Shown piece by piece: positions 757-23,144 of a stretch of 32,000 bases of DNA. The notes beneath the pieces were generated by a model that had not been told where the DNA came from, did not search any database, and saw nothing but the letters and a program-made list of their open reading frames with translations. The translations under genes and the position numbers were made by a program. This stretch comes from an archaeon (GTDB taxonomy: Archaea; Iainarchaeota; Iainarchaeia; Iainarchaeales; 1-14-0-10-31-34): assembly GCA_024277355.1 (NCBI GenBank), contig JAJRVL010000001.1:102363-134362 (forward strand), in the 5' to 3' direction. The number at the start of each line of letters is the position of its first letter. The first letter of the stretch is position 1.

Positions 757-3700
757 ATGGGTTTGAAAGAAGTTTATTCTGCAATAGAAACCAAATATTA
801 TAATTTCATGGATGCGATAGACGAAAAAGGAATTCCAGTGTATAAAGCAATTGATTTTGTTGAATCAAAAAGCATTCCTTCTTTTCCTTTAGCAGTTATT
901 TTTTTTGTATTAATTTTATCAGGATTAATTTTAACTTTAAATGGCGGAAGCTTACTGCAGAATACAACTGAATTTGAATTAATGATAACAGATGGAACAA
1001 CAGCAATACAAGGAACAACAATAAGTTATTTTTTAGGAGAAAAACAAATTACAGTTACAACTAATAATCAAGGAAAAGCAGTAATTGAAGTAACTCAAGG
1101 AAAAGAATTTTCAGTTACAGCAGAAAAAAATGGATTTAAAAAAATAACTAAAACTTTTGATGCAAAAGATGAAAAAGCAACACTTGTTTTAATTGCAGAT
1201 ATATTAAAGCCAATTAAAATCCAGTTATTAGGAAAAGGAAACGAATTATTAGAAGAAGAAATAAAAGTTTCTTTTACTTGTTCTGAAAATGACAAATGGA
1301 ATGAAATAGTTTTATTTAACACAGGAACAACAAATTTAGCTGATGTTCCGGCAAACTGCGGAAAAATTTTAGCTGAACCAATAGGGAAAAAATGTTCAGA
1401 CTGTGACTTTGATGCATATGATTCATTAATTAAAATTTATTTAGAAGAAACCACAACAGAAAAAGGAACAATTAATTTTACTGTATTAGATGACAAAGGA
1501 AATTATGCTGAAGCAATACAAGTAATGGTTATTCCCACAGGAAATTTAAAAGAAGAAGATTCATGCTATACTTTTAATGGTTTATGTGAAACAGAAGTCC
1601 CATTTGGAACTTATTATATTAGAGCAACGGATTCAACAGGAAAATTAAGAGATTATGATTCAAGAAAAGATACAATAACTATTACATTAAATTCAAATAA
1701 CCAAAACATTGATTTTGAAGAAATAATTTTAGGACAAGGAGTAATTGGACAAATAAAAATTAAAATTAAAAGTGAAACAGGAAATTTAATTGAAGATGCA
1801 TTAGTCAGATTATTTAAAGATAATTCTGAAATAAACCAGCAAAGAAGCAATACAGAAGGAGAAATAATATTTAATGTTGCAGAACAAATTGATTACACTG
1901 TTTCAGTTACTCATGCAAATTATTTGAATTCAGATGTAAAAACGGTTTCTCCAAAAAATGATTTTTATTCATTTTCATTAAAAGAAGCAACTTCTTCTAA
2001 TAAAAGAAAAATTGAAGTAAACGTAGTAGACGAAAAAAATGAAGCAGTAGAAAACACTAAAGTTTTCTTAAAAGATGCATTAACCGGAAGCATTGTAGGA
2101 CAAGAAAAAGTAACTGGATTAGACGGAAAAGCTTCATTTGAAAGACTTCCAACAGGAAAATATATTTTAAGAGCAGAAAAAAGAGGCTTTGAAGGAAAAG
2201 ATTCAAGAGTAATTGAAGTAAAAGAAAATGAATTAAATGAAGTAACAATAAAATTAGATTTAGGACAGGGAAACCTTGACGTAATAGTTATAGATAAAGA
2301 AAAACAGCCAATTCAGTCAGCAACAATTAAAGTAATAGATTATTTTACAGGAAAAGAAATTTTTGTTGATTCAACTGACACTGAAGGAAAAAAAAGCTTT
2401 AATATCAGAGCAGACAAAAAAGTTTATTTAGAAGTAAATGAAAGTTCTCACTCTAATTATATTAGTGCACCGATTCAGATGTTTAATGGAACAGAAGAAA
2501 AAACAATTTTATTAGAAGATTCAATTAATTCTTTTGCAATTAAATTAGAAGAATTAAGTTTAGAAGGACAGGAAGTAGAAAACATTACTGTTTCAGAAGG
2601 AAGAACTTATAAAGCTAAATTCAAATTAATGATTCCAACAAATGTTTTTTCAAATAATGCAGGAGTTCATATCAGGACTGGCGCAGACACAAAAAACCAG
2701 AATAATACAATGGAAAAAGATGATTTATACATCAAAAAAGTTATTGCTTCAAATGCAAAAATAATTAAAGGAACAGCATTTAATCCAAATACAGGTTATG
2801 CAATTGACTCAAAGCATTTAACTTCAGGAAATGCAAAATGGACAAACATAATATTTAATTCAGTTAAAGAAGGAACCTATGAAGTTGAAATAGTAATTCA
2901 GGTAAGAGAAACCTTAAACGGCAGTCCAATGGAATTAGCTTATAGAGCTTGGATTGAAAACAATGGATATCAAAGAGATCCATATGATTCAGAATTACAG
3001 GAAGCAGAAAGTTCAGCATTAAAACAAGCATTATATGCAAAAACAAGACATGAACCATTAAAGATTGGGGCATCAAGTTTATGTGCAGAAAATTTTTGTT
3101 CAAGCTTTACAATAAAAGATTTGCAGAATGCAGTAAGAACAAATATAATTGATTCTTTTCCAGCAGAAATTTCAAGTAATTATGAATTAGAATTTAATAT
3201 AATCAGCACAAGCGAAAAAACTTATTCTAATAGCGAACTAATAATTAAAGGAAAAGGAATTGAATTAAATTCATATGAAATTCAAGGCACACAAAAAAAT
3301 GCTGAAGGAGAAATCATAGTTAAAACAGGATTAATAGAAAAAGGACAAAAAATTTCAGGGACAATAAATTTCACAACAAAAAAAGAAGGAACAAACAGAA
3401 TTGACTTAAGTTTGTTTGGAGAAAGTTCAACTTTAGGAAAAGAAAAAATATTATTTAAGCCTATAAGAGCTGAAGTAAAACATGCAAAAACAATGATTGT
3501 TTCAAATTCTCCTCAGAATTTAGTTCCATTTATTAAAAATAATTTATTAGTAAGAATAACAGATGAAGAAGAAAATGAATTAAGTGAAGTAGAAATAAAA
3601 ATAGAAAAGGACTTTGAATTAATTGCTTCAGGAAAAACTGATTCAAAAGGAATTTTTGCTTTTGGGTTTGAAGCAATGAACCCAGGAACAAAAATAATTA

Positions 3701-6700
3701 TTACTGCAGAAAAATACGGTTTTAATTCAGTTGAAAAAGAAATGAAAATACAGGAAAATATTATTGATGTTTCTCCTCCTGAAATAAATGAAAGCTTTAA
3801 TGCAAAACAAGATTATGCAGTAACAAGAGATATAACTTTAAAGAACACAACTGAAATGCCTTTGACTGTTATTGGAGCAGAATTAACTGATTCATTCAGA
3901 GGAATGATTGAAAGTGAAATTACAGGAACAGGAAAAGAATTAACAATAGGAAATTCAGAAAGCATTTTAATTAAACTTGAAATGACAAACAAAGGAAAAA
4001 ACATTAAAACATTAACTTCTTTAAGCGGAGAAGTTGTTTTGATTTTAGAAAACCTTGAAGCAGGAAAGCAATGGACTGCAAGTGTTCCAGTAAAAATTAC
4101 AATCGGGTTAGGCGGAGAAGTTGATTCAGCTGACTGTTTTAGTTTAAGTCCAAATTCATGGACTGCATTAACAGAAAATAAAACAAAAGAAATCAAATTA
4201 AATTTAGCAAATAATTGTACAGTTAAAGAAGAAAATATTTCATTAAAAGATGTTAAAGCAAAAGTTGTATGGAAAGAAAATGCAATTGGAACATTTGAAT
4301 TAACTTCAGGAATTGACGGAACAAAAACAACAACTTTAACTAATAATTATAAGACATTAAATGAAACATTTAATCCAAATACAGGAGAAGAAGAAAATTT
4401 AACTTTAATTTTTACTCCTGATGAAATTGCTTTAGGTTCAGGCACTGCAACAATTTATTTAGAAGCAGTTAATCCAACCGAAAAAGGAAACCAAAAATTA
4501 ATTCAAAAAATAGAAGTACAAACAGAAATAAGCAAATTAAGTGAATGTTTAAGGATTAGGCCTGCAAGCAATCAAATAAGAATCCAGATGAATTCATATA
4601 ATTATGGTTATGGATCTATGCCAAATTACTTTGGTTATACTCCTCAAAATAATTATTATTACGGCATGAATCCAAATTATTTAAGTTCAGGTAACAGAAA
4701 TTATCCTTTTACAAATTATCCTTATGATCCAAATGCTTCTGCCGGAAGTTTAAGAAATAACCCTAATGTAGTTTTCCCTGATGGCTGGAGAAGCCAGCAG
4801 TATCCTCATAATTATTATAATACAACTTACAGCAATCCAACAGGATTTAATCCAAACTTAAATAATGCCTGGAATACTGGTTCATTAGGCGCTCCAGGAA
4901 AAGCAACAATAGATATAGAAAATTCTTGTGCTTCAACAGTTCAAGTTGAATTAGAAGGAACACCAGAAATAAGTGTTTCCGACAGAACAATAGTATTAGA
5001 AAAAGGAAACCATAAAACAATTGAAATAACTCCAACAATGTTTATTGGACAATATCCTTTAACTATTAGAGCAAAACATAAGAGTTCAACTGACTCAGCT
5101 TTTGAAATAGCAAAATATAATGTTTTAGTTGAATCAGAATTTGAAAGAAATTATTATGACTGCATTAATTTAAGCAAAAGAGTATTTACTTTTAATGATG
5201 TAATACAAAAACCAGTTGAAGGAATGGTTTGGAATACCTGTTATGACACAGGAATAAGATTAAATTATCAGTCAATTCCAAGAAATTTAAGCGGAATAGG
5301 AAACTTTAATTTTCCTTCACCTCAGGACACAGGACAAAAAAGGCTTGGAAGTTCAGGAATGATTAGTTCAATTGAATTAATACAATTAGTTAATAAGCCT
5401 GGAGCAGAAGGAAAAATAATACAGGAATTAAAATTCAGAATGAGAAAAAATTTAGGTTATAGAACAGGAAAAATCCCTCAATTACCAAACCAAAACAATC
5501 CATTAATTGAATTAGCAAATTTAAGAATTAAATTAACAGGAGCATATTATACAATTGAAGCCGAAGAAAGACTTCCAATTACTTTCTTTGACAGAACAGG
5601 AAACACTCAGGTTATTCCATTTGATATTATAATAGAAGATTTATGGGCAGGACTGCCAATAATAGCAGAAGAAATAGAATTTGGAAACCCAAATGCAGCA
5701 CATCAGGAATGCATTGATGAAAGTGCATTGCAGTTTAGCGACTGTATTGCAGATGAATTATTTATTGACGGAGTAAGCAGATATATTGATGCCAGAAAAG
5801 TAATAAGAAAAGGAAAAGAATTTTGCGGCGACTCAGACAGAATTGCAAGATTAATTAATAGCGAGATAAAAGATGATTCAGGAATTACATTGAAATTTGA
5901 AGTAAAAGACGGCGACAAAATACAGGTAATAATAGATAAAACAAAAATGAAATATAATCCAGGAAGAATTGAAGGAAAATTATATGCAAGGCTTTCAAGA
6001 GTAAGTCCATTAGAAACAAAAACCGTTGAAATTCCTTTCTCTATTGAAGTATGTGAATTAGCAGAAAAACAAGAAAAATGTTTTGATAAAATAAAAGACA
6101 AAGAAGAAATAACAAAAGATTTAATTGACGAACAATGTCCTGATTTAAGTGAAGATGAAAAACAAGGAATAATAGATAAAACAAAAGAAACAGAAGAAAT
6201 CCAGTTATGTGAAAATGGGTTTACAGGAGAAACAGCATTCAAAGAATATGGTTTAGATAAAATCAAATTAAACTGGGAATGGAATTCAATTGAAGAAAAT
6301 GAATGTGACGCAGAAAACAATAATTCAATTTATTGTGATGCAGTACAATTTGCAATTGAATTAAATAAAAAAGCAAAAAACATCCGCAATTTAGGAGTTA
6401 TTGCAGGAGACTGTACTGGTTATTGTGAACAAACAGATTCATTGAATTTATTCAGGTTTATAATAGCTAAAACAAAAGTAAAAGATGATATTACAAAAGA
6501 ACTGCAATACTTTTTCCTTGATTCAAGTAATTCAATTATTGCAGGAAAAAAGTTTGATGGAACAGAATTCAAAACAGAAATTAATACAATAAAAGAAGCA
6601 TTAGAAACAGATTTAACTAATTCAAAAGCAAAAACAATAACTCAAGTAGTTAACACAATAATTGACGCAGTTAAAACTGATTCAGCAATTGATGAAACAG

Positions 6701-8088
6701 CAATAATAGGAGAAATTAAATTAGGAAACATGCTTCCAGGAAAACTTGAAGCAATCGGCGCAGAAAGAATAATATCAACAAAATATGTTATGACTTTTAA
6801 TGAATACAAAGCTTTAAGAGACCAGTTAAAAACATGCACTGACACAAATCCAACCGCAAAAGAATGCGAAATAAACAAAGTAAGCGGATTAACTGGAAAA
6901 ATATTTATTGACAAAGACTTCTTAAAAGAATTACAAAACAACATTGAATTCAAAGTTGGAATTAGAAATACTGCTTCAATTACTTTAACTGAAAGAAATA
7001 CAGTAATAAAACAAGGAAAAGTAACAGCATCAAAATTAGTTGGAACAAGCTTTGAAGACTTTTACAACAAAAACATTGAATTTATTTCTTTACTAAAAGA
7101 AGACGGAATAAGTCCAGAATTTAAAGAAGATTTTACAAAAGAATATGCAACAAAAGAAGTTGATTCAGGATTTAGAGAATGGACTTTTAATAAAACAAAA
7201 TTTGATTCAGGAACATATTTAGTTAAATTTAATTATGACTGGGCTGCTGAAGGAAAAAACACTGAAGTAAAATTAGAACATGATGGAGACTTAAGTTCAG
7301 TTTACAAAAAGAATTATTTATTTAGTGTTCCATTTGACGGAAAAGTCGGAATAACTGATTCCACTAAAAGAAAAGGTTATGGAACAGGATATGGAAACAA
7401 TAAAACAGTTAACAATATTTATTTGAATAAAAATATTTTATTAAAAGACGGAGACGGATTAAACACTGGATTAAATCAGTTTAATAATACAGAAAAAGCA
7501 GAAGAATTCAAGGATACAAGAAACGGAAAAATACTTTACATGACAAACGGAGAATTAAAGTTTACTCCTTCAAAGCCATTAGGATTAACAGCAGAATTAG
7601 ATTCAGGAAAATCAGGAGTATTTTATGATTTAACTAAAACAGCAAAAGCAATTGGAATAGACCAAGAAACAACATTAAATTATTTATTTAAATGGAATTC
7701 AGTTAAAGATGAAAAACAAGAAGAAAGCAATTTAAAGAAGGCAACTGACTGTCAGGCAACAAGATTTGGAATAATTTTTAATGATGAAGAAATACAGAAA
7801 GTTTTAAGTTTTATTCCGGTTAACTGGGGCTATAAATTTGAAAAATACTGCAATAACGGAATAAAAACAATGACTGGATATGATTTCAGTTATAAAGGAA
7901 TAGTAGAAAAACATGATTTACCAGGAACTGCTTCATTTAGTTCAGATGTAGAAGGCAATATTGAACAAAAAACAAGCATTAAAAAATGGATTGACGATAT
8001 TAAAACTGAAAACATTTGCTTTACAACTAACAACAATGAATTTACATTAGAATGGAATAAAGAAAAATTAATGAAAGAAATGAATTAA
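757..8088 (+). CDS. Giant membrane-anchored surface protein, paralog 1 (2443 aa); CarboxypepD_reg-like beta-sandwich repeats plus uncharacterised conserved modules
   Basis: Uninterrupted 7.3-kb ORF. It has an N-terminal module MGLKEVYSAIETKYY...IPSF followed by the hydrophobic helix PLAVIFFVLILSGLILTL. At least 5 tandem repeats (about nt 970-2460) carry the CarboxypepD_reg-type pattern, e.g. RKIEVNVVDEKNEAVENTKVFLKD...TGLDGKASFERLPTGKYILRAEKRGF. There are many N-x-S/T sequons. It is collinear in homology with the ORFs at 8105-14662 and 14746-21852. Confidence 0.93.
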   Translation: MGLKEVYSAIETKYYNFMDAIDEKGIPVYKAIDFVESKSIPSFPLAVIFFVLILSGLILTLNGGSLLQNTTEFELMITDGTTAIQGTTISYFLGEKQITVTTNNQGKAVIEVTQGKEFSVTAEKNGFKKITKTFDAKDEKATLVLIADILKPIKIQLLGKGNELLEEEIKVSFTCSENDKWNEIVLFNTGTTNLADVPANCGKILAEPIGKKCSDCDFDAYDSLIKIYLEETTTEKGTINFTVLDDKGNYAEAIQVMVIPTGNLKEEDSCYTFNGLCETEVPFGTYYIRATDSTGKLRDYDSRKDTITITLNSNNQNIDFEEIILGQGVIGQIKIKIKSETGNLIEDALVRLFKDNSEINQQRSNTEGEIIFNVAEQIDYTVSVTHANYLNSDVKTVSPKNDFYSFSLKEATSSNKRKIEVNVVDEKNEAVENTKVFLKDALTGSIVGQEKVTGLDGKASFERLPTGKYILRAEKRGFEGKDSRVIEVKENELNEVTIKLDLGQGNLDVIVIDKEKQPIQSATIKVIDYFTGKEIFVDSTDTEGKKSFNIRADKKVYLEVNESSHSNYISAPIQMFNGTEEKTILLEDSINSFAIKLEELSLEGQEVENITVSEGRTYKAKFKLMIPTNVFSNNAGVHIRTGADTKNQNNTMEKDDLYIKKVIASNAKIIKGTAFNPNTGYAIDSKHLTSGNAKWTNIIFNSVKEGTYEVEIVIQVRETLNGSPMELAYRAWIENNGYQRDPYDSELQEAESSALKQALYAKTRHEPLKIGASSLCAENFCSSFTIKDLQNAVRTNIIDSFPAEISSNYELEFNIISTSEKTYSNSELIIKGKGIELNSYEIQGTQKNAEGEIIVKTGLIEKGQKISGTINFTTKKEGTNRIDLSLFGESSTLGKEKILFKPIRAEVKHAKTMIVSNSPQNLVPFIKNNLLVRITDEEENELSEVEIKIEKDFELIASGKTDSKGIFAFGFEAMNPGTKIIITAEKYGFNSVEKEMKIQENIIDVSPPEINESFNAKQDYAVTRDITLKNTTEMPLTVIGAELTDSFRGMIESEITGTGKELTIGNSESILIKLEMTNKGKNIKTLTSLSGEVVLILENLEAGKQWTASVPVKITIGLGGEVDSADCFSLSPNSWTALTENKTKEIKLNLANNCTVKEENISLKDVKAKVVWKENAIGTFELTSGIDGTKTTTLTNNYKTLNETFNPNTGEEENLTLIFTPDEIALGSGTATIYLEAVNPTEKGNQKLIQKIEVQTEISKLSECLRIRPASNQIRIQMNSYNYGYGSMPNYFGYTPQNNYYYGMNPNYLSSGNRNYPFTNYPYDPNASAGSLRNNPNVVFPDGWRSQQYPHNYYNTTYSNPTGFNPNLNNAWNTGSLGAPGKATIDIENSCASTVQVELEGTPEISVSDRTIVLEKGNHKTIEITPTMFIGQYPLTIRAKHKSSTDSAFEIAKYNVLVESEFERNYYDCINLSKRVFTFNDVIQKPVEGMVWNTCYDTGIRLNYQSIPRNLSGIGNFNFPSPQDTGQKRLGSSGMISSIELIQLVNKPGAEGKIIQELKFRMRKNLGYRTGKIPQLPNQNNPLIELANLRIKLTGAYYTIEAEERLPITFFDRTGNTQVIPFDIIIEDLWAGLPIIAEEIEFGNPNAAHQECIDESALQFSDCIADELFIDGVSRYIDARKVIRKGKEFCGDSDRIARLINSEIKDDSGITLKFEVKDGDKIQVIIDKTKMKYNPGRIEGKLYARLSRVSPLETKTVEIPFSIEVCELAEKQEKCFDKIKDKEEITKDLIDEQCPDLSEDEKQGIIDKTKETEEIQLCENGFTGETAFKEYGLDKIKLNWEWNSIEENECDAENNNSIYCDAVQFAIELNKKAKNIRNLGVIAGDCTGYCEQTDSLNLFRFIIAKTKVKDDITKELQYFFLDSSNSIIAGKKFDGTEFKTEINTIKEALETDLTNSKAKTITQVVNTIIDAVKTDSAIDETAIIGEIKLGNMLPGKLEAIGAERIISTKYVMTFNEYKALRDQLKTCTDTNPTAKECEINKVSGLTGKIFIDKDFLKELQNNIEFKVGIRNTASITLTERNTVIKQGKVTASKLVGTSFEDFYNKNIEFISLLKEDGISPEFKEDFTKEYATKEVDSGFREWTFNKTKFDSGTYLVKFNYDWAAEGKNTEVKLEHDGDLSSVYKKNYLFSVPFDGKVGITDSTKRKGYGTGYGNNKTVNNIYLNKNILLKDGDGLNTGLNQFNNTEKAEEFKDTRNGKILYMTNGELKFTPSKPLGLTAELDSGKSGVFYDLTKTAKAIGIDQETTLNYLFKWNSVKDEKQEESNLKKATDCQATRFGIIFNDEEIQKVLSFIPVNWGYKFEKYCNNGIKTMTGYDFSYKGIVEKHDLPGTASFSSDVEGNIEQKTSIKKWIDDIKTENICFTTNNNEFTLEWNKEKLMKEMN

Positions 8089-8104: not shown

Positions 8105-10183
8105 ATGGCAATAAAAGATTTGTATTATGAAATGGAAGATAAATTTTATTCTTTAATTGACAAAACACCATTAACAAAAATAACTGACCCAATAGACAAA
8201 ATTGTCCCTTCATTTATGGTTTTTATTGCAGTAATTTTAATTTTATTTGCATCAGGAATAATTATTTTAATGGGAGAAGGTTTAGGAGAAGAAAAAAATT
8301 TAAGTTTTAAATTAATTGATGAAGACGGACAGGCATTAAGCCAGACAGAAATAATTGTTTCATTTAATGATAAAACAGAAACATTAACTACAAATGCTTT
8401 TGGAAAAACAGGAAAAATTAAAGTACCATTAAATTCAATGGTTTCATTTGAAGTAACTGAAACAGGATTTAAAAAAGAAACTGATTTATTTAAGTTTGCT
8501 GAAGAAGGCGAAAAAACAATTACCTTAAAATCAGGGACAGCAGAACAAGGAAAAACAAGAACAATAAAATTATATGATAAAGAAAACAGAAGTGAATTAA
8601 TTACAGGGAAAACTTATAGAGTTTCTTTTTCCTGCAGTAATTCAAAAGCAACTCCTCCTTCAACAATAACTGTTTCAAATGGAAAAGGAAACGTAATTGA
8701 ACCAGCAGACTGTGGAATATTAACTGCTTCAGTTTCAGGAAACCATTCAGAAAGCATTTCAATGGATTTAGATGAAGAAAGCAATGCAGTTTACTTGGAT
8801 TCATTAATTGAAGTTAATACTTTAATAGTTGAAGTTAAAAATGCAGACAATAAATCATTAGACGGAATAAAAATAAGGATTGATTCATTATATGACAATA
8901 ATGACACTCCTGTTTTTGCAGACAGTTCTTATACTTTTAACGGTCAGGCAGAATTTGAATTAGAATTAGGAACCTACAAAATAACTGCTTTTGATGAAAC
9001 AGGAAATTATTATGAAGCAAAAAAAACAATTAATTTTAATGGAAATGATTTAATTAGAATTGAATTAGAAAGAGCAGTGCCTGAAGGCGGTTACTTAAAA
9101 ATTAAAGTAATAGATAAAGACAATAAAAGCGAGTTAGCTGAAACAAAAGTAAAATTATATTTAGATAACGAAGTATTTGAAGAAAGAACAACTAATACAG
9201 AAGGAATAACAGAATTTTATTTAAAAGACAAAACATTGCTTTATGATGCAGTAATAGATAATGAACAATATATAGTAAAAAAAGTTTCAGGGCTTTCAGT
9301 TGATAATACAGCTGTTACTGTTGAATTAGAAAAATTCACTGGAAATAATGCAGGCACATTAAAGATTAGGACAATAACAATTGACGGAACAAAAGAAAAG
9401 CCTGTAAGAAATGCAAGAATTGCATTATATTCAGTTGAAGAAGATGAAGTAATTCTTACAGGATTAACAGAAAAAATAACTGACATAAATGGTTCAGTTG
9501 AATTTGATAAAATAAAAAACGGAACATACAAAGCTTTTGCATATAAAGGAACTTCTTCAGGATGGAGTGATGCAGTATTATATGACAGAAGAAATTCAGA
9601 TACAACAGGATTAACTGTAACAATGCTTATTCCAAACGGAACACTAAAATTAAATGTTGTGGATGAAGAAAACAATCCAATTCCTTTTACTACAATAACT
9701 TTTTTTGAAGAAGGAAATTCTAAAAAAATAAAAGCAGATAAAACAGACAGCAATGGAAGCATTTTAATTGAAACAAAAGCAGACAAACAGATTTACTTTA
9801 AAGCAGAAAAAGAAAATTTCATGGATTATTACAGCAAAAATTACCCAATATTTGATTCAGCAACAGAAGAAACAATTCAAATGATTCCTGAAAAAAGAAT
9901 GGAAAAACCAGAAATAAAAATTACAGGATTATTCAAAGGAAACGAAGTATTAAATGAAGTTTCTTCACTTGAAGCAGGAGACGAATATAAAGTAAAAATA
10001 CAGTTAATTATTCCTGAAAAGAACTATGAAGAAGCAGGAATTCATTTCAGAGTAGGAAAAGATATTTTCTTAGAAAATGATTTTATTTTTATTAAGACAG
10101 TTAATGCACCAAATGCAATAACAAAAAAATTCACAATGTTTGATGAAACAAACTTAAATGACTCAAAGAAAAGCTCTACTTAA
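8105..10183 (+). CDS. Giant surface protein paralog 2, N-terminal fragment (692 aa) ending at an in-frame TAA inside a conserved domain
   Basis: The N-terminus MAIKDLYYEMEDKFYSLIDKTPLTKITDPIDKIVPSF plus a TM helix is near-identical to giant 3. It carries CarboxypepD_reg-like repeats, e.g. LKIKVIDKDNKSELAETKVKLYLDNEVFEERTTNTEGITEFYLKD. It stops just after the AGIHFRVGKD motif, where paralogs 1 and 3 continue. Confidence 0.85.
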   Translation: MAIKDLYYEMEDKFYSLIDKTPLTKITDPIDKIVPSFMVFIAVILILFASGIIILMGEGLGEEKNLSFKLIDEDGQALSQTEIIVSFNDKTETLTTNAFGKTGKIKVPLNSMVSFEVTETGFKKETDLFKFAEEGEKTITLKSGTAEQGKTRTIKLYDKENRSELITGKTYRVSFSCSNSKATPPSTITVSNGKGNVIEPADCGILTASVSGNHSESISMDLDEESNAVYLDSLIEVNTLIVEVKNADNKSLDGIKIRIDSLYDNNDTPVFADSSYTFNGQAEFELELGTYKITAFDETGNYYEAKKTINFNGNDLIRIELERAVPEGGYLKIKVIDKDNKSELAETKVKLYLDNEVFEERTTNTEGITEFYLKDKTLLYDAVIDNEQYIVKKVSGLSVDNTAVTVELEKFTGNNAGTLKIRTITIDGTKEKPVRNARIALYSVEEDEVILTGLTEKITDINGSVEFDKIKNGTYKAFAYKGTSSGWSDAVLYDRRNSDTTGLTVTMLIPNGTLKLNVVDEENNPIPFTTITFFEEGNSKKIKADKTDSNGSILIETKADKQIYFKAEKENFMDYYSKNYPIFDSATEETIQMIPEKRMEKPEIKITGLFKGNEVLNEVSSLEAGDEYKVKIQLIIPEKNYEEAGIHFRVGKDIFLENDFIFIKTVNAPNAITKKFTMFDETNLNDSKKSST

Positions 10184-10216
10184 GGAGACGCAAAATGGTT
10201 TAATTCAGTCTGGTTT

Positions 10217-13200
10217 TTGCCTGAAAAAGGAGTGCATAATATTGAAATATTAATTAAAGTAAAAGAAAATGCAAGATTAGGACAGGAATTAAAATTAAAA
10301 TACAGAGCTTATGCTGATACAGGTTCAAGAACTGAAAGAAATCCAACAGATGTTTCAGTTACTTCTTCTGAAGAATTAAATGCTGCTGTAAAAGAAAAAA
10401 CTTTTACTGTAGGTGCAAATATTTTTTGTTCAAATGAATTCTGTTTTAGTGCAACAATTTTAGATTTAAAAGAAGACATAATCAAGAAAGTTTCAAATTC
10501 TTATCAAACAAAAATCCTACAGAAATATGAATTACAGTTTGATATATTGAATAATAATAAAACAAAAAAACATTATGATGCAAAAATTCAGTTAAAAAAT
10601 GAAAATGAAATGCTTAATTTTTTAGATTACAGAATAAGCAATGCTGATGCATTAACTAAAAGCGGAACAGCAGACAAAAAAGAATTACCTTGGGTTGAAT
10701 TAGGAGACTTTGATCCAAATAACCATATAACAGGAAAAACTGAATTTATTACTCAGGAAACAAAAACAGGAACAATAGATATTGTAATTGTTTCAAATCA
10801 GGAAATAGTATTTGAAAAAAACATTCAGATTGAAGTTCAGGCACCAAAAAACTTTTTAGTTGAATTTACTCCTGAAAAAATTCCTTCAACTACTTCATCT
10901 TTAATTGAGTTTACAGTATTTGACGAAGAAACAGGAATTGAAATTGAAAATGCTCAAATAAAAGTAATTGACAGGTTTGGAGACTTAATTGCAGGACCTG
11001 AATTAACCGACAGAGAAGGAAAAACAGAAATAATTATTTCAGGACAGGCTCCTGACACAAAATTAATTTTCAGGACAGAAAAACAGGAATACAATATTTC
11101 AGAATTAGAAGTTTTTACTGATAACTCAATAATTGAAATTACTCCTGATAGAATTGGAATTACATTAAACACTAAAACACAGAAGTCAAATGAATTTTCA
11201 TTTAAAATAAAAAACATATTAGAATTTGACTTGGAATTAACTTCACTTAAATTTACTGGAAACTTCAGAGATTTATTAAATAAAAAAGCAATGAATGCAT
11301 GGATGAATACAAATTACGGAAACATAATTATTCCTTCAAAAACAACAAAAGAAGTTAAAGTAAAAGGAATTTTATCTGATTATGCATTAAACAGAGAAGA
11401 AAGAGATATAGTTGAATTAGACTTGGAATTAGAGTTATCTAATGGAGAAGCTTTCTGGACAAAAGAAATTCCAGCAAAAATTTCAATTGGAATAGGCGGA
11501 GAAGTAGATGATCCAAATTGTTTAACTTTAGAACAAAGAACATGGAAAACAGGAACAGAAGGAAGCAAAGTAAAAATAGACTTTGGAATAGAAAATGCAT
11601 GTACAATTAACGGGAATCCAATTGAATTAAAAGACTTAGAAGCAAAAGTTAACTGGAATTCAAATCACATTGGAACTTATACTTTGACTTTTGAAGGAAA
11701 TCCAGTTGAATTAAGGTCAGCTTATTACAGGAAATTAACTGAAGAAATGGAAAACAGAAAATATACTGCAACACTTTCATTTGAACCAAACGGAGGAGTA
11801 AATGGAACAGCAAATGCAGAAATAATTTTAAGGGCAAGAAACCAGTTAGACGGAAAAGATGAATTTATTGAAGATAAAATTTCAACTGAAATAAAAATAA
11901 TTAACTTAAAAGACTGCATTAAGTTTTCTAATACAGACTTAAAAGTCAAAAAAGGAGAAATAACTTCATTTAATGTTTCAACTTTAGGTTGTGGAAGCAA
12001 TGTTTCTTTTACTTTTGATTCAGAATTAAAATTAAACAGTAAATCTTTAACTTTAGGTTCAGAAGATTCAACTGAAATAAAAATTGATTCAAGAGATGCT
12101 TTATCAGGGAGATATTTAATTAAAGCAGAAGCAAAAGGAAATTCTTTAGCAACAAAAACACAAATACAAAATATTTTTGTAACAGTATTTGAAGATTCCT
12201 GTGTTGCATTAAGCAGATATGAATTCGATATTTATGATTCAACTGAAAATGATTTTGATGGATATGACACAGCACAATTATACAATTACTGTGATGAAAA
12301 AGAATTATTAATTAAAGTTAACATGAAAGACTGGAGTTTAGCAATGAGAAATTCATTACTGCCTTCATTAATTGCATTTGGGACAGCAACAATAAGTGAT
12401 AAGAGCAGCGATAAAGCAGATACAACTGATAATTCAAATGGAGAAAAAGTATGGGCTGCAGAAAAAGAAAGCATTCCAACAACAGCATTTATAGGGTTGC
12501 CTTTTATTGGAGAAATTTCTCAGATTTTAAGCGGAGGAAACTTACTAAAAAGTGTTTTTGGTTCAGCTTCTCCATTTGAAATATTTGGAATAACTTTTGT
12601 TGCTTCAACTTTATATAATTACTTTAGTGCAGATGAAATTGGATTTAATGCAATAGCAGATAATATTACAGTCGATGACATTGTATTATTAGAAGGAATA
12701 AAATATACTACAGAAAAAATTGAAGTATTAGATGAAGAAATAGGATTAGTTATTGACGGTCCTTTTTCCTGCTTTGATTCAGTTTCAAATAAAACAATTG
12801 ACTGCTGGGATTTAACTTTTGTAAATGAAAATAAGTTGGTTCAGGAAGACGAATTTACTCCAATAATGAAAATACTTAAAACAAAATCAGCAGAACACTT
12901 CTGGAAAACAGATTACGACGGAGACTATTTCAATGAAAATAAAGGATTCCTTGAAAAAATGTTTAACGGAGCAGACTTAGACTTAAAAAAACCATTACAA
13001 GAAAAAACAAATAAACAAAATGAAATATTACAATACAATAAACTGCAATTTAATTCATTTAATCCAGAAGACACAACTTTAGGAAAACAAAATGCTTTTG
13101 GTTCATGTTCAATTGGAGAATTAACAGGAGAAACAGGAGTAAATGCTTTGCCTAAAATCAAATTAGACTGGAAATGGAATTCAATAACACAAAATTCATG

Positions 13201-14662
13201 CGATGAAAGTAATGAAAATTACATTTACTGTGATGCAACACAATTTTCAATTGAATTACTCAAAAAAATAAAAGAATTAACTGAAAGACTTGAAGCAGAT
13301 GCATTAACTTGTGAAACAAACTGCGTTTATTCAACAATTGAATTGCCTGCATTAATTGAAAACACAGAAAAAACAAGATCTGTTTCAGACAAAGAAAGAT
13401 TACTTGAATTAGTTTCATTTAATTCTTATTTAATTAAAGACGGTTATTCAAAAGACTTCCAGGAAGACTTCCATGATTATGCAGTTAATATTGATTTCTT
13501 TAATGCTCCAACTTCTTATTACAATCCAATAGAAGAAATAGGCCTTGGAGTTTACTTTAAAGACAATTCATTATTTGAATTCAATTACGAAGGCAGTCCT
13601 AACGCACCATTATCAGGACCAGGATTATACAACATTGAAATAGATATTACCTATAATGATTCTTCATGGAAATTATTCAATGGAAATACTCCTAATGCAA
13701 AAATAAAAATTAATTTAAGCAAACAAAGAGCAGCAAAACCAAACTCTCCATTATATTACCTGCCATTTAACGGAGAAATTGGACTTACATCAGATAATGG
13801 AAGAATAGGTTATGGATTAGATTACGAAAATTTAACAGGAAAACCAATAAGAATAAATGACACTACAAGAAGTATTAGAACAGTTCCTCTTTCAGTTGCT
13901 GATCCAGTAGAAGAATTAAGAACAATATATGAAACAGACTTCAAAAAATTAAATTTAGATGAAAGAGCAAAAATAATGCAGTTTGAAAGAACTTCAACCG
14001 GAACAAAATTAACTTATACTCCTTCAACTGCAACTCCAGTAATACTTGAAACAACAAGAAGTTCTGAAACACCAAAAGAAACAGCTTATGCATTTTATTT
14101 AATTACAGTTGACGGTCAGGCACAAAATGTTGGAAGCACAGGAATAACTAATTGGTCAGGAATAGAAGCAAACTGCAAAGACTTTGAAGACAGAAGTTCA
14201 TTAGATTACATGGAAACAGCAGACATGCATGGAATAAGCAGTGAAGCAAGCAATGCACAGATTACTGCAGATAAAGCAACAGCTTATGGATGGATATGGA
14301 ATAATCCAATTAGAACTGGAAAATTCTGGTTAGAAACATTAATTTTTAGTCCACTTGAATCAAAAACACAAATGCATTTAATTTCAGCAGCAAACAATGC
14401 AAAAATTTATACTCCATTAGATTCAGCAGTATTAACAGAGAATTCAAACTTAACTCCTTTTGTTGAATTAAATGGAGTAACAAGCTTGGAAATAACTTCC
14501 CTACAAAAAATACTTGATTTAGTTGAAACAAAAGATGTTTGTGTTGGAGGAATAGGAAATTCAAGTTATAGTTATTTCTTCTGGAATCCAGAAAAAGTTG
14601 ATGACTCAATTAATTCAGTTAAAAACAAGTTAAACGCAGAAGAAAACTGTATTCTGAAATAA
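10217..14662 (+). CDS. Giant surface protein paralog 2, C-terminal fragment (1481 aa from a TTG that is probably not a real start); same frame as 8105-10183
   Basis: It is in the same reading frame as the upstream fragment. The 11 codons between TAA 10181-10183 and 10217 read GDAKWFNSVWF, which aligns to GNAKWTNIIFN (giant 1) and AKAKWTNILWN (giant 3). There is no SD before 10217. The remainder is collinear with giants 1 and 3 to the C-terminus (..NCILK vs ..NCIG). Confidence 0.85.
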   Translation: MPEKGVHNIEILIKVKENARLGQELKLKYRAYADTGSRTERNPTDVSVTSSEELNAAVKEKTFTVGANIFCSNEFCFSATILDLKEDIIKKVSNSYQTKILQKYELQFDILNNNKTKKHYDAKIQLKNENEMLNFLDYRISNADALTKSGTADKKELPWVELGDFDPNNHITGKTEFITQETKTGTIDIVIVSNQEIVFEKNIQIEVQAPKNFLVEFTPEKIPSTTSSLIEFTVFDEETGIEIENAQIKVIDRFGDLIAGPELTDREGKTEIIISGQAPDTKLIFRTEKQEYNISELEVFTDNSIIEITPDRIGITLNTKTQKSNEFSFKIKNILEFDLELTSLKFTGNFRDLLNKKAMNAWMNTNYGNIIIPSKTTKEVKVKGILSDYALNREERDIVELDLELELSNGEAFWTKEIPAKISIGIGGEVDDPNCLTLEQRTWKTGTEGSKVKIDFGIENACTINGNPIELKDLEAKVNWNSNHIGTYTLTFEGNPVELRSAYYRKLTEEMENRKYTATLSFEPNGGVNGTANAEIILRARNQLDGKDEFIEDKISTEIKIINLKDCIKFSNTDLKVKKGEITSFNVSTLGCGSNVSFTFDSELKLNSKSLTLGSEDSTEIKIDSRDALSGRYLIKAEAKGNSLATKTQIQNIFVTVFEDSCVALSRYEFDIYDSTENDFDGYDTAQLYNYCDEKELLIKVNMKDWSLAMRNSLLPSLIAFGTATISDKSSDKADTTDNSNGEKVWAAEKESIPTTAFIGLPFIGEISQILSGGNLLKSVFGSASPFEIFGITFVASTLYNYFSADEIGFNAIADNITVDDIVLLEGIKYTTEKIEVLDEEIGLVIDGPFSCFDSVSNKTIDCWDLTFVNENKLVQEDEFTPIMKILKTKSAEHFWKTDYDGDYFNENKGFLEKMFNGADLDLKKPLQEKTNKQNEILQYNKLQFNSFNPEDTTLGKQNAFGSCSIGELTGETGVNALPKIKLDWKWNSITQNSCDESNENYIYCDATQFSIELLKKIKELTERLEADALTCETNCVYSTIELPALIENTEKTRSVSDKERLLELVSFNSYLIKDGYSKDFQEDFHDYAVNIDFFNAPTSYYNPIEEIGLGVYFKDNSLFEFNYEGSPNAPLSGPGLYNIEIDITYNDSSWKLFNGNTPNAKIKINLSKQRAAKPNSPLYYLPFNGEIGLTSDNGRIGYGLDYENLTGKPIRINDTTRSIRTVPLSVADPVEELRTIYETDFKKLNLDERAKIMQFERTSTGTKLTYTPSTATPVILETTRSSETPKETAYAFYLITVDGQAQNVGSTGITNWSGIEANCKDFEDRSSLDYMETADMHGISSEASNAQITADKATAYGWIWNNPIRTGKFWLETLIFSPLESKTQMHLISAANNAKIYTPLDSAVLTENSNLTPFVELNGVTSLEITSLQKILDLVETKDVCVGGIGNSSYSYFFWNPEKVDDSINSVKNKLNAEENCILK

Positions 14663-14745: not shown

Positions 14746-17700
14746 TTGGGATTAAAAGACATTTATTATTCAATAGAAGACAAATATTATTCTTTAATTG
14801 AAAAAACTCCTTTAACAAAAATAACTGATAAAATTGATTCTATTGTTCCTTCTTTTGCAGTATTAATTGCATTAATTATTTTAATTTCAGGTTTTTTAGT
14901 TTTGCCTTTTTTTGGCGGAGAAGAATATTCTTTTACTGTAACAATCAAAGATGAACAGGGAAAAAAACTTGAAGGAATAAAAGTAAATGTTTTTATCGGA
15001 GAAGAAAAACAAGTTTTAACAACAGATTCTGAAGGAAAAATTTCATTAAAAGCAAAAAAAGATTTAAAAATAAAAATAGAAATAGACAACAAAAAATATG
15101 AATTTATAGAAAAACAATTTAATTTAACTGAAAATGAATTAAGTTTTGAAGTTGAATTAAAGAAAATTGAGGCAGAACCCGCAGAAGCTAATTTGAAGTT
15201 TACAGACAAAAGCGGAAAATATATTACAGGAAAAGAAATAACAGTAAACTTAAGCTGCAGTAATTCTTCTATTAAACCTTCTCCTTCAACAGTAAAAGAT
15301 TCAGATAAAGACGGGGAAATAAAAATTAATATTCCTAAAGGATGCGGAAAATTAGTTATTAATTCAGTTGAAGTTGAAGGATATGAAAACTGGTTTGGAA
15401 CAATTAATTCAGCAGTAGAAACAATAAAATTAAATGCAATATTTTTAGGACAGGCATTAGGAGATTTAAAAGTAATCGTGGAAAATTCAAACGGAGAATT
15501 ATTAGATGACATTAAAGTAAGTTTAATGAAAGGGAACTCAAAAATAGATCAAAAGTATACAGTTGACGGAACCGCAGAATTTACCGGAATTGAAATTGGA
15601 TTTTATGACTTAAAATTAGAAGACGAAAAAAATGGGTTTGAACCAAAAAGAGTTTATTCAGTTGAAATAGAAAACGAAAAAATAAATGAAAGAACAGTTG
15701 AAATGCAGCCAACAAAAAAAGGCACACTAAAAATAAATATATTAGATAAAGAAACTAATTCAAAAATAAAAAATTCTGAAGTAATAATAGAAAATGAATT
15801 AGGAGAAATAATAGGGGAAAGAAACACAGGAGAAACAGGAAATACAATTGAATTTGGATTATATTCCACTGAAAAACTAATTATTAAAGCAAGAGCAGAA
15901 AAATATTTGCCTGAAAAAACTGAAATTAACCCTGAAACCCAAAAAGAAGTTGAAATTAAATTAGAAAAAATTACTGCAGAAAACAGCGGTAAATTAAAAA
16001 TAATTTTAGTTGATGAAGACAAAAAAAACATTGCTAATGCAAGAGTAATGCTAAAAGATGAAGACGGCAGTCTGCTTACTGAGTATCCTGAAAAGTTTTC
16101 TGATGCAGAAGGAATAGTTGAATACACAGGAATAAAAAAAGGAATTTATTTTGCTTATGCAGAAAAATATCCTGCTTCTGGACTTTCAGACTCATTTGAA
16201 ATAAAATTAACAGAAAAAACTGAAATTGAATTAAAATTAATCATAGGAACAGCAAAAATTGAACTGCAAACAATAACAAAAGACGGAGAATTCATTCCAA
16301 ATACAAGAGTTAAAGTAAAAAGCATTGATGAAGAAAAAACTTATACTTTAAATTCAGAAGGAAAAACTACTTTAGAAATAAAAGCAGATAAAAGAGTTTT
16401 TTTTGAATTCTTTGATTCAAAAAATGTTTATTCAAAATACACTACAAAAGAATATCAGTTACTTCCAAAGAATTATTTTATTACTGCAACAATGCCTGAA
16501 CAAAATTTAGGAGAAAATTTATGGATTGAATTAAAAGGCGTTTATTTAAATGACACAAAACAAACTATTCTGGCAGGAGGAAAAAAATACAAAGCAGTAT
16601 TAGAATTATTTGTTCCAGAAAACGAATCATATGAAGAAGCAGGAATTCATTTCAGGACAGGAGAAGATGAAAACCCATTTATAGAAAATGATTTAGTTTG
16701 GATAGAAAAAATTAATGTTTCAAACGCTTCAAAAATAAAAGGAACAACATGGAACCCGAAAAAAGGGCAGCAAACTGATTTTGATTCAGATAATTCAGCT
16801 TCAAGCAATGCAAAAGCAAAATGGACAAATATTTTATGGAACAATGTTGAACCAGGAGTATATGAAGCAGAAATAGAACTAAGAATACGAGAAGGAACAG
16901 GAGATAAAGAAAAAGTAAGTTTAAGTTTTAGGGCATGGGGAAAAGGAAGAAACTATTATTACTTTCCGGCAGACAATGAATTAGGTTCAAGTTCTTCCAC
17001 TACAACAAAACAAGGATTATATGCTGAAACATTCCAGAAAGAATTTAACACAGAAGAAGAAGTTCCTGTTTGCATGGAAAACAATTTATGTTTGTCAAAA
17101 CAAAGATTAGAAGATAAAACAAAAGAACCATTTATCATACAAAAAAAACTTCCGTTTGAAGCAGGAGCAAACGGAAACTATGAATATAGTTTTAAAATAG
17201 TGAATAATTCTCAGTCAATTTATGATGAACCTGAATTATGGATTGAATTAATTGATGCAACAGGAAATTTAACTGAAGAAGCAGAAATAAGTTATTATGA
17301 AATTAAAACTTCAGAAGGAAATTCAAAAACAAAAGAAGTTAATTCAAATGAAACACAAGGAATTTCTTTAGGTTTATATGGAAGGCAGTCAGTAATTGAA
17401 GGAATTATTGGAATAAAAACAAAAAATACAGGAAATACTTTTGTTAACTTAAAAATATTTGAAAAAGTAAACAATGGGTCAAATAAAATTTTTGACAATG
17501 AAAAGAAAACAGAAATAAAAATTAAATCAGGAAAAGCATTAGAAATAGAATTAATGCCTGAATTAATTCCTGCTTTTGCTGAAACTCCTGCAACAATAAT
17601 AATAAAAGATTTAGATGGAATTGAAGTAGAACAAGCAAGAGTAAAATTAAATGTAATAGAAGAAGGAAACAGAAAAATAACTATTGAAGAAAAACAAACA

Positions 17701-21906: not shown

Positions 21907-22236
21907 ATGTTTCCTGAATTAAGTTTTCTTTTTATTGGCGAATTTATTTCAGACATCGGTTTTGCATTAAAAATTTTTGTTTTAATTGCAATTGTTTCTT
22001 TTATTAAAAGTCATTTAGGTTCAGGGCCTTTTGCAGTAATTTTAATGGGTTTAACTGCTTATTTTGTTTTGTTTGATCAATGGAAATTATTTGGCGGAAT
22101 TTATGTGTTATATGTATTGTTTTTGTTTGGAGTAGGGCATTTAATGGTGGATTTCTTTTTTGTTGCACAGCATGCTCCTGGAGATGAAATGAGCCATATT
22201 CCAAGCCATAATATGCCTAAAGGAAGGATGCATTAA
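21907..22236 (+). CDS. Small polytopic membrane protein 1 (109 aa, ~3 TM), unknown family
   Basis: Hydrophobic helices IGFALKIFVLIAIVSFI, GPFAVILMGLTAYFVLF and LFGGIYVLYVLFLFGVGHLMVDFFFV. It has the loop motif KSHLGSGP shared with the next ORFs and a His-rich C-tail. It is the first of five back-to-back ORFs. Confidence 0.75.
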   Translation: MFPELSFLFIGEFISDIGFALKIFVLIAIVSFIKSHLGSGPFAVILMGLTAYFVLFDQWKLFGGIYVLYVLFLFGVGHLMVDFFFVAQHAPGDEMSHIPSHNMPKGRMH

Positions 22237-22237
22237 A

Positions 22238-22570
22238 ATGAATGAAAAAGGCGGATTAATTCTGATTATTTTTGGCTTATTTGTCATTGTAGGCTTATTG
22301 CCTTGGATTTTAATGAGCATAGTCCCGCAAGCAAAAATATTAATTCAATTAATCCTTGTTTTTGCGATTTATACTGCAGTAAGAGGCTATCTTGGATCTG
22401 GAACTTTAACTTTAATTATTTCAGGAGTATTAATTTACATTTTAGTAATAAAATATGCTGCATTTTCTTCTGCTGCTTATATGTATATGGTTGTTGTTCA
22501 GGTTGGAGTCAGTTCAATGCTTATCTGGGGAACAAATTTCTTTTTAATTAAGTTTGGGAGAAAACATTAA
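22238..22570 (+). CDS. Small polytopic membrane protein 2 (110 aa, ~4 TM), paralog of protein 1
   Basis: It starts 1 nt after the previous stop (TAAaATG), with AGGAAGGA at 22221-22228, 9 nt upstream. It carries the motif RGYLGSGT followed by LTLIISGVLIYILV. Confidence 0.78.
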   Translation: MNEKGGLILIIFGLFVIVGLLPWILMSIVPQAKILIQLILVFAIYTAVRGYLGSGTLTLIISGVLIYILVIKYAAFSSAAYMYMVVVQVGVSSMLIWGTNFFLIKFGRKH

Positions 22571-22581
22571 AGAGTGATAAA

Positions 22582-22833
22582 ATGGATTTAATGGTTTTTT
22601 CTGCTTTGGCTTTGGATTTAGAAATAGTTTTATCATTATTTTTTCTTGTATGGGTTTATGCTTGGGCAAAAGGAAAATTAGGCAGTCCAAAACTGGCAAT
22701 AATTTTTGCAGCAATAATTGTTTATTTGACTGTATCACAACACAGAGAATTAATCTGGTTAGGAGTGTTATTATTCTTATTAGCAACATTTGGAAAAGAA
22801 TTACTTGAAAAATTTAAGATTTATGGTGAATAA
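22582..22833 (+). CDS. Small polytopic membrane protein 3 (83 aa, ~3 TM), same family
   Basis: GAGTGAT at 22572-22578 lies 3 nt before the ATG. It carries the motif KGKLGSPK followed by LAIIFAAIIVYL. The N-terminus MDL... is shared with protein 4. Confidence 0.75.
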   Translation: MDLMVFSALALDLEIVLSLFFLVWVYAWAKGKLGSPKLAIIFAAIIVYLTVSQHRELIWLGVLLFLLATFGKELLEKFKIYGE

Positions 22834-23142: not shown

Positions 23143-23144
23143 AA

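Follow-up and report, generated by a model that had tools for sequence, protein, structure and literature searches.

A conserved N-terminal module precedes the membrane helix of giant surface proteins in Iainarchaeota

Introduction

Some small genomes devote several percent of their length to arrays of giant surface proteins, for which roles in host or cell contact have been proposed. In Nanohaloarchaeota such proteins are represented by the SPEARE proteins, which differ from the giants of Iainarchaeota in domain content and N termini. Iainarchaeota, known under the older name Diapherotrites, are uncultured, small-genome DPANN archaea. In one member of the phylum, Forterrea multitransposorum, membrane-anchored giants encoded in a single array were proposed to act in cell–cell interaction (Probst and Banfield 2018, PMC5905446); they equal the giants described here in number (five) and size, and the paper does not describe an N-terminal module. 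Giant1–5 of Apilactobacillus kunkeei also form a giant surface-protein array that fills several percent of a small genome and for which host- or cell-contact roles were proposed (PMC12863079), but they differ from the giants here in domain content and N termini: they begin with ordinary Sec/SPI signal peptides and have a C-terminal region that is conserved.

Very large surface proteins of bacteria can also carry conserved, lineage-specific N-terminal extensions just ahead of their hydrophobic segment: ESPR (PF13018) in proteobacterial autotransporters and two-partner secretion, and YSIRK-G/S (PF04650) and KxYKxGKxW (TIGR03715) in Gram-positive giants. All three are basic, measure ~25 aa or less and belong to bacterial Sec signal peptides that are cleaved off. 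The module described here occupies a similar place in archaeal proteins, but is acidic, Tyr-rich and ~40 aa long, is predicted to form a helix-turn-helix, is sometimes internal and is followed by a helix of transmembrane (TM) length. The other close comparison is the uncleaved type II signal-anchor whose cytoplasmic N-domain is small and folded; it likewise has an N-terminal cytoplasmic segment, one long hydrophobic helix, a large C-terminal ectodomain and a charge distribution favouring N-in.

Here we analyse a 32,000-nucleotide window of an Iainarchaeota genome that contains three tandem giant genes (g1, g2 and g3). Bases 8105–8275 encode the one membrane helix of g2 and, ahead of it, an uncatalogued domain of ~40 residues that we call the anchor cap. 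We put it at somewhat better than even that this cap sits on the cytoplasmic side and is a docking or positioning device, not an export signal.

Results

Giant proteins of the phylum share an N-terminal module

The five module carriers in this genome are its five largest proteins, no other protein there carries the module, and together their genes take ~35 kb, about 3% of the 1.13-Mb genome. They represent five orthologous paralog classes of the genus and family, g0–g1–g2–g3 in tandem and g4 elsewhere in the genome, each with class-specific signatures and orthologous across the family. Overall identity among g1, g2 and g3 is 24–30%, and the giant ectodomains contain Ig-like, CarboxypepD_reg and Big_1 domains (Pfam). 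Orthologs of g2 have no interruption and reach 2,207–2,278 aa. Coordinates are given in Table 1.

Table 1 Features of the giant-protein locus (positions in the window).
Feature	Position	Strand	Basis or remark
Giant 1 (g1) gene, 2,443 aa, beta-sandwich-rich surface protein	757..8088	+	Pfam CarboxypepD_reg at 2.2e-24
g1 N-terminal module, aa 1–43	757..885	+	Translation; profile match 2.5e-31
g1 membrane anchor, aa 44–61	886..939	+	Kyte–Doolittle
Giant 2 (g2) gene	8105..14662	+	Single reading frame broken by one TAA at 10181–10183
g2 N-terminal module, aa 1–37	8105..8215	+	Translation; profile match 7.6e-28
Conversion tract in g2, aa 16–28, SLIDKTPLTKITD	8150..8188	+	4-codon deletion common with g3
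g2 membrane anchor, aa 38–56	8216..8272	+	Kyte–Doolittle peak 3.13
Giant 3 (g3) gene, 2,368 aa	14746..21852	+	ORF and domain scan
g3 N-terminal module, aa 1–37, TTG start	14746..14856	+	Translation; AlphaFold2 pLDDT 87
Matching conversion tract in g3, aa 16–28	14791..14829	+	g2–g3 and ortholog comparison
g3 membrane anchor, aa 38–56	14857..14913	+	Kyte–Doolittle; AlphaFold2 helix residues 36–56
Five tiny polytopic membrane-protein genes, directly downstream of giants	21907..23516	+	Candidate membrane partners, by context
HerA/DUF87-like protein gene	24304..25803	+	Candidate cytoplasmic scaffold, by context

The module follows the motif Y-x3-E-[DE]-[KR]-[YW]-Y-x2-L-D ... P-[VI]-Y-K-x2-D-P-I-D-x3-P-S-F, which in g2 is laid out as two amphipathic helices, the second of them short, with a turn between them and the PSF junction at the end. 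It is 37–43 aa long and Tyr-rich, has a mean net charge of −1.4 and holds four to five near-invariant acidic residues (E11, D19, D32, D35) and three prolines. The anchor-cap family is defined by this motif (P-x-Y-K accepted) directly before the anchor helix of a protein of >1,000 aa; g1, g2 and g3 all belong to it, with profile E-values of 2.5e-31 to 7.9e-28. A recount from the translations agrees with the earlier sequence-only reading, in which g2 and g3 shared 28 of their first 37 residues and g1 kept the same start and the IPSF end around a longer middle. The g1 module is a long form with two E-K-G/S-I-P-aromatic units, which is also found in other orders of the class; the g2 and g3 modules have no Y28 and are shorter by roughly a turn in helix 1. 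Orthologs of g3 start at the same codon position with TTG, GTG or ATG.

A profile search of the phylum found the module in 195 of 201 genomes, with 1–9 copies each, including 58/58 high-quality Iainarchaeota genomes and 40 of the 41 genomes of the order. Absence of the module outside this locus, which the sequence-only reading had named as a point that would count against it, is thus not what the profile search found. Among 1.84 billion protein cluster representatives there were 977 profile matches, the best 150 of which have one module per protein, at or near the N terminus. A related-locus search with a single-protein query gave 12 loci. One carrier is titled 'Micrarchaeota' (L042), but this is an NCBI label only; its genome (G005) shares the GTDB genus of the present one, and therefore this analysis gives no evidence of a carrier outside Iainarchaeota. 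Some carriers of 1,600–1,800 aa match the G000 giants in the module only (BLAST). In a Pfam scan of five such carriers, beta-sandwich domains (CarboxypepD_reg, SpaA) were matched in three and no domain in two, which gives no sign that proteins of an unrelated class bear the module. Giant beta-sandwich surface proteins of Iainarchaeota, a DPANN phylum, thus make up an ancient family that is defined by the cap.

In 28 full-length giants from six genomes, the module was the top-ranked 40-column window (mean pairwise identity 0.487 versus 0.264 overall), followed by an ectodomain Cys motif (0.439). The proposal that it is the best-conserved part of these proteins therefore holds over the 28 giants and also between g2 and g3, where the N terminus is the best window (27/34), but not when g1, g2 and g3 alone are compared together, where that ectodomain motif (LPKIKLNWxW...YCDAxQF, g1 aa ~1833–1876) outranks it. 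Across 29 giants from 29 genomes of the order, identity was 0.55 in the module versus 0.23 in the next ~450 residues, and the TM sequence, at 0.27, was not conserved.

Predicted structure and topology of the cap

The cap is predicted to consist of two amphipathic helices followed by a long, non-conserved TM helix. AlphaFold2, run with 16 sequences on a 60-residue construct, returned helix-turn-helix-TM in two models (pLDDT 87.2 and 92.4), a three-helix prediction that is weakly discriminating; the g3 model has helices at residues 3–19 and 24–33 ahead of the TM helix, and the TM helices span 19–21 residues. The hydrophobic moment was 0.40–0.47 for helix 1 and 0.68 for the consensus helix 2, values reached in 1–3% and in none of 2,000 shuffles, respectively. 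As had been noticed from the sequence, a hydrophobic stretch directly follows each module, with Kyte–Doolittle peaks of 2.7–3.1 and an AlphaFold2 helix at 36–56. The first hydrophobic peak falls at aa 28–71 in all five giants and is the sole above-threshold peak in four of them; g3 has a second, internal one.

In 123 representatives drawn from the best-scoring of the family, PSF is followed by an uncharged stretch with a median length of 26 aa (IQR 24–31), and net charge is +0.15 in the 18 aa before this stretch and −1.5 after it. In the g4 class and other members, a K/E-rich disordered extension of 40–150 aa stands ahead of the module (75–140 residues precede it in the g4 class), and one family member has two further hydrophobic segments there; both features are compatible with a module inside the cell. 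The 26-residue uncharged stretch, the charge balance and the K/E-rich extensions together speak for a type II anchor that is not cleaved and carries its cap in the cytoplasm. Consistent with this class, the giants have a single predicted N-terminal TM helix, a large C-terminal ectodomain and charge favouring N-in. We infer from these composition rules that the cap lies in the cytoplasm at the inner membrane face and that the helix is a permanent type II anchor and not a cleaved signal peptide. Generic type II signal-anchors are without a conserved cap, whereas here the cap is sharply conserved phylum-wide while helix and ectodomain drift.

A cap in this position might act on the membrane surface alone. 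Its two amphipathic, Tyr/Trp-rich helices would lie on the inner leaflet, fix the N-in topology and resist pull-out of the single-helix anchor of a 250-kDa ectodomain with no protein partner. The significant hydrophobic moments, an interfacial aromatic belt (Y7, [YW]14, Y15, Y28) and the direct abutment of module and helix are all in keeping with this idea. However, the near-invariant acidic residues and three prolines are more specific than lipid binding requires, and acidic side chains are uncommon in an inner-leaflet interfacial helix; we regard this explanation as unlikely, if still worth weighing.

The module differs from known signals and domains

No match to the module was found in Pfam, NCBIfam or PDB. 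With the three N-termini at E≤10, Pfam gave only ApoO, DUF6753 and ATG22, and the weak hits across the Pfam and NCBIfam scans also included YidC, Tet(46) and Loki-CTERM, all far below cut-offs and driven by the hydrophobic helix. A PDB sequence-profile search returned only noise at E = 1.1, and Foldseek with the 60-residue model gave no match.

That the module does not resemble a Sec, Tat or class III signal, as first suggested by eye, is supported by several observations. Its length and negative charge are at odds with the basic n-region of Sec class I signals, no RR occurs in g0–g4 and arginine is rare in the profile. In place of a class III (prepilin/archaellin) junction there is the invariant P-S-F after the ~40-aa acidic module, with no match to a pilin-family profile. 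Downstream of the helix the sequence is not conserved, and an ASA-like site is present only in g0.

The module could instead be an extended signal-peptide or targeting region comparable to ESPR, YSIRK or KxYKxGKxW, which would pace or route the Sec/SRP-dependent export of very long proteins, or direct them to an export route or site of their own, and might be removed later. In very large exported proteins it always abuts the first hydrophobic segment, it resembles ESPR in being conserved and lineage-specific, and the ASA-like site of g0 would suit cleavage in that one paralog. Against these points, the three N-termini had no match to PF13018, PF04650 or TIGR03715 even at E≤10, the module is acidic and not basic, the uncharged stretch exceeds a signal-peptide h-region, the sequence after the helix is unconserved and the g4 class places its long extension ahead of the module. 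Moreover, other secreted proteins of this genome, 1,051–1,714 aa in length, carry ordinary signal peptides, which weakens a generic large-cargo targeting role. A targeting region of this kind is accordingly improbable, though it deserves to be kept in mind.

Protein-level selection and a short gene conversion tract

Between orthologs, amino-acid identity was 0.68 in the module and 0.49 elsewhere, whereas codon identity at identical residues was 0.61 in the module and 0.63 elsewhere. Since synonymous sites are no more conserved there than in the rest of the gene, the module is kept by protein-level purifying selection; the strong purifying selection postulated from the sequence alone is supported at the protein level across the phylum.

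The alternative offered at the same time, gene conversion, applies to a tract of ~12 codons in this genome (Table 1) and accounts only for the excess g2–g3 identity, not for the module. Here g2 agrees with g3 at 12/14 positions, while either of them agrees with its own orthologs at only 6–10/18; seven of the eight shared-derived g2–g3 columns fall in columns 16–27 of 337 (permutation test, P ~7e-4). The donor of the g2 tract was probably g3. Over the first 135 nt, g2 and g3 DNA is 76% identical here versus 62–69% in four congeneric genomes, so that the reported near-identity of the DNA reflects an excess that exists but is modest, and the stretch quoted for it coincides with the conversion tract. 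A second tract was considered in genome G006, where g2 equals g3 over KII.PIDKVFPSFILFI, and rejected: the stretch is the phylum consensus and several synonymous sites differ.

Given this tract, the likeness of the modules could be read as mere concerted evolution, in which tandem paralogs were recently converted and the likeness means nothing for function. This reading is already contradicted and very improbable: the tract is short, beyond it each paralog is nearer to its orthologs in other genomes than to the neighbouring paralog, clustered shared-derived sites were absent from the other genomes tested, and the module is conserved phylum-wide, the unlinked g4 gene included. A constraint on nucleotides or RNA (5′ mRNA structure or a translation-initiation element) in place of the peptide, for which the near-identical DNA might speak, is scarcely credible in view of the codon identities above, the differences between g2 and g3 at about one third of synonymous positions in the module and the internal location of the module in the g4 class.

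Gene neighbourhood

The genes for giants, small membrane proteins and the HerA-like protein keep their synteny across orders. In the window, the same neighbourhood also contains two minus-strand genes, one for a 195-aa helical protein (23599–24186) and one for a 159-aa protein (25850–26329). A homolog of the tiny membrane proteins lies within ~1.2 kb of the last listed giant in four genomes (G023, G022, G017, G037), the HerA-like gene adjoins the giant array in five (G000, G023, G022, G017, G041), and the HerA-like gene is linked to small membrane genes in G046 and G078. Adjacency is not universal: the HerA-like gene is far from the giants in G037 and G009, and the G046 giants are on other contigs. 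One-to-one pairing of the five giants with the five tiny membrane proteins was rejected, as G046 has two module carriers and three small paralogs.

Discussion

We favour a docking or positioning role for the cap, which is suggested by its anatomy, the predicted topology and the gene neighbourhood, with the partners standing as candidates. A common docking surface may be formed by the helix 1 face with Y7, E11, Y15 and D19 and by D32 and D35 in helix 2; through it the five giants would all be joined to a single shared partner or to one another. As candidate partners we would put first the proteins whose genes lie after the array in several orders, namely the tiny polytopic membrane proteins, whose loops are predicted to be basic, and the HerA-like ring protein.

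A bolder version, which we hold to be speculative and rather unlikely, is that the five caps plug into one shared, phylum-specific platform of tiny polytopic membrane proteins and a HerA-like ring, giving an envelope or host-contact machine of fixed composition. Within such a platform, the cytoplasmic ring would organise, or sense through, 250-kDa surface proteins. If true, archaea would possess a type of surface apparatus that has yet to be described.

As the one piece common to all five giants, the cap is a compact, testable handle on the giant system. It can serve as a 40-residue bait in the search for partners and as a sequence signature that marks giants in fragmented metagenomes, and it is a candidate for a new Pfam-type domain. 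It also shows that family-specific N-terminal devices have arisen on the very large surface proteins of archaea, as ESPR and YSIRK have in bacteria, and the archaeal device appears to be a retained anchor cap and not a cleaved signal.

A conserved N-terminal module, probably a cytoplasmic cap, of the giant surface proteins

Bases 757–21852 of the window, part of a 1.13-Mb genome (28% GC, 96% complete), are occupied by three giant genes, g1, g2 and g3, all in the same direction, whose proteins share overall pairwise identities of only 24–30%. The N-terminal peptides quoted for them in the sequence-only reading match the translated starts exactly, and a recount for g2 and g3 again gave 28 identities in the first 37 residues. 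A profile search with this module, the conserved segment directly before the hydrophobic anchor helix, retrieved just five open reading frames, the five largest of the genome: g0, directly upstream of the window, g1, g2, g3, and g4 on a separate contig. The five paralog classes are orthologous throughout the genus and family, each with its own signature, and gene order is conserved across the family as g0–(~2 kb gap)–g1–g2–g3, with g4 elsewhere. The g0–g1 gap keeps a constant size in relatives (window ~1–756; ~2.0 and ~1.9 kb in genomes G001 and G006). The giant array itself has already been noted in Ca. Forterrea multitransposorum (PMC5905446), where the module is unmentioned, and we found no description of the module in the literature searched.

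Two irregularities concern the reading frames. g2 is split by a single in-frame TAA (window 10181–10183), after which the same frame stays open for 1,481 more codons; five related genomes encode its orthologs without a break (2,207–2,278 aa), and the TAA could have arisen very recently by nonsense mutation, stem from misassembly or be read through. The g3 class has TTG or GTG at the same start position in five congeneric genomes (window 14746; G001–G004) and ATG only in the next genus, which looks like a conserved non-ATG start.

Coordinates of the module, the ectodomain islands and neighbouring genes
Feature	Position	Strand	Residues	Remark
g2 module and hydrophobic helix	window 8105–8275		37 + 19	from translation
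Ectodomain Cys island, g1	window 6253–6384		~1833–1876	
Ectodomain Cys island, g2			~1674–1725	
Ectodomain Cys island, g3	window 19813–19941		~1690–1732	
Small membrane-protein genes	window 21907–23516			right after g3
HerA-like gene	window 24304–25803			
g4, fifth giant	locus L006:188–6298	-		contig C9 of the same genome; unlinked from array

Profile searches beyond the locus, as proposed in the sequence-only reading, found the module phylum-wide: of the 41 genomes of the order, 40 carry 2–8 copies, and of the 201 of the phylum, 195 carry 1–9, among them all 58 high-quality genomes. These carriers are mostly frames of 2,000–3,000 aa where the contig end spares the gene, often in tandem. An exhaustive HMMER search of 1.84 billion cluster representatives gave 977 matches at E ≤ 1e-3; among the best 150 of them each protein contains a single copy of the module, at residues 1–20 or behind an extension of up to ~150 residues. 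The taxonomic range of carriers rests on the search within the phylum Iainarchaeota. One carrier (loci L042/L046), labelled 'Candidatus Micrarchaeota archaeon isolate OS_PC_MetaG.mb.82' at NCBI, belongs to genome G005, of the same genus as the window; NCBI phylum labels of such MAGs can therefore mislead claims of taxonomic range. Five carriers with ectodomains that BLAST could not align to the giants of the window's genome were scanned with Pfam, which returned beta-sandwich matches in three and none in two. The module itself had no match in Pfam, NCBIfam, PDB sequences or by Foldseek.

The claim that the module is the best-conserved part of the giants held for the g2/g3 pair (27/34, the top window) but not for g1, g2 and g3 jointly, for which an ectodomain Cys island (LPKIKLNWxW..I..N.C...N.YCDAxQF) ranks higher. 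Among all 40-column windows, the module ranks first in a comparison of 28 full-length giants sampled from six genomes within the family (mean pairwise identity 0.487, versus 0.439 for the Cys island and 0.264 overall). In a set of 29 giants from as many genomes of the order, identity falls from 0.55 in the module to 0.27 in the helix and 0.23 in the next ~450 residues. The Cys island, the giants' second-best, carries paired cysteines (PKIKLDWxW..I..N.C...N.YCDAxQFSIEL..K) and has no match in Pfam.

Predicted structure and topology

In a logo of the best 150 of the 977 matches, Y7, E11, Y/W14, Y15, D35 and P39 are present in 100%, followed by D19 (99%), P26 and S40 (98%), Y28 (97%), F41 (95%), D32 (94%) and P33 (91%). 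AlphaFold2 models of small constructs, built on a 16-sequence alignment, predict a helix-turn-helix-TM arrangement for module and anchor, with helices at residues 3–19, 24–33 and 36–56 in g3 (pLDDT 87) and 2–25, 28–36 and 41–59 in g4, the canonical form (pLDDT 92). A long form with two E-x-K-G-I-P-aromatic units occurs in more distant orders of the class and also in g0 and g1. Both cap helices are amphipathic (muH 0.40–0.47 for helix 1 and 0.68 for the consensus helix 2), values attained in 1–3% of 2,000 shuffles for helix 1 and in none for helix 2. The hydrophobic face of helix 1 comprises L3, F6, Y7, L10, Y14, L17 and I21; invariant E11, Y15 and D19 run along one flank, and the opposite side is variable. 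We consider it unlikely that the cap, for all its amphipathic character, is purely lipid-binding.

The view that the module is not a signal peptide was strengthened. The uncharged stretch behind P-S-F has a median length of 26 residues, with a net charge of +0.15 in the 18 residues preceding it and −1.5 after it (the whole module is mildly acidic, at −1.4), and no conserved sequence was found downstream of the helix in the 29 giants of the order. In all members of the g4 class the module is preceded by an extension of 75–140 residues that is K/E-rich and apparently disordered; no start codon was found near the module in g4 of the window's genome. One distant carrier has two additional hydrophobic segments N-terminal to the module, which would again place it inside. 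On these sequence features, taken together with the comparison with signal peptides below, we favour a type II anchor that is not removed and whose cap lies in the cytoplasm. The ESPR, YSIRK and KxYKxGKxW motifs are functional analogues, but the module fails their profile tests. Secreted proteins of 1,051–1,714 aa from the same genome start with ordinary short signal peptides, so the cap is not a general requirement for big-protein export here; an ESPR-like targeting or pacing role seems doubtful to us.

A separate feature lies deep in the g3 'ectodomain': a Gly/Ala-rich hydrophobic segment of 40–55 residues (aa ~1470–1525, window ~19153–19320), followed by C..F.C.DPCD and conserved within the genus in orthologs of the g3 class. 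Around aa 2000, proteins of the g0 class contain a comparable segment that resembles a glycine zipper. The g3 segment may be a membrane hairpin or membrane-interacting loop, which, if true, would complicate the simple one-anchor topology.

Selection on the peptide and gene conversion

The similarity of the modules had been ascribed to strong purifying selection or gene conversion; protein-level constraint was borne out, and conversion only as a small local tract in the window's genome alone. There, a 4-codon deletion is common to g2 and g3, as is the segment S-L-I-x-K-T-P-L-T-K-I-T-D (12/14 matching); in this stretch the agreement of each with its respective orthologs is limited to 6–10 of 18 positions, while the flanks are closer to the orthologs. 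Seven of the eight columns in which g2 equals g3 and differs from all ten orthologs fall within columns 16–27 of 337 (permutation probability ~7e-4, with the deletion counted as one event); five other genomes have 1–7 such columns, scattered. The conversion signal is real but small, and the donor was probably g3, because Thr in place of Y28 characterises the g3 class. Identity between g2 and g3 in other congeners still amounts to ~56% in the module, against ~20% in the ectodomain; conversion therefore accounts only for the excess in this genome, and concerted evolution alone is a very improbable source of the likeness. Ortholog identity is 68% in the module versus 49% in the following ~530 residues, whereas codon identity at identical residues is alike inside and outside it (0.61 versus 0.63). 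What is constrained is therefore the peptide rather than the DNA or RNA, and a nucleotide-level element is hardly credible.

Gene neighbourhood and proposed role

In G023, G022, G017 and G037, the last giant listed by the profile search has a homolog of the small membrane proteins encoded right after g3 within ~1.2 kb. The HerA-like gene comes next in G023, G022 and G017, and also in G041, from a different order; it is located elsewhere in G037 and G009. G046 and G078 keep the HerA-like gene linked to the small membrane-protein genes and have their giants on other contigs. The link between giants, small membrane proteins and HerA-like gene is moderately strong, as gene adjacency and not contact. 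On balance, we lean towards a model in which the module would form a folded cytoplasmic cap atop a permanent membrane anchor and present a docking face, acidic and aromatic, that all five giants have in common and that may tie them to one shared candidate partner or to one another.
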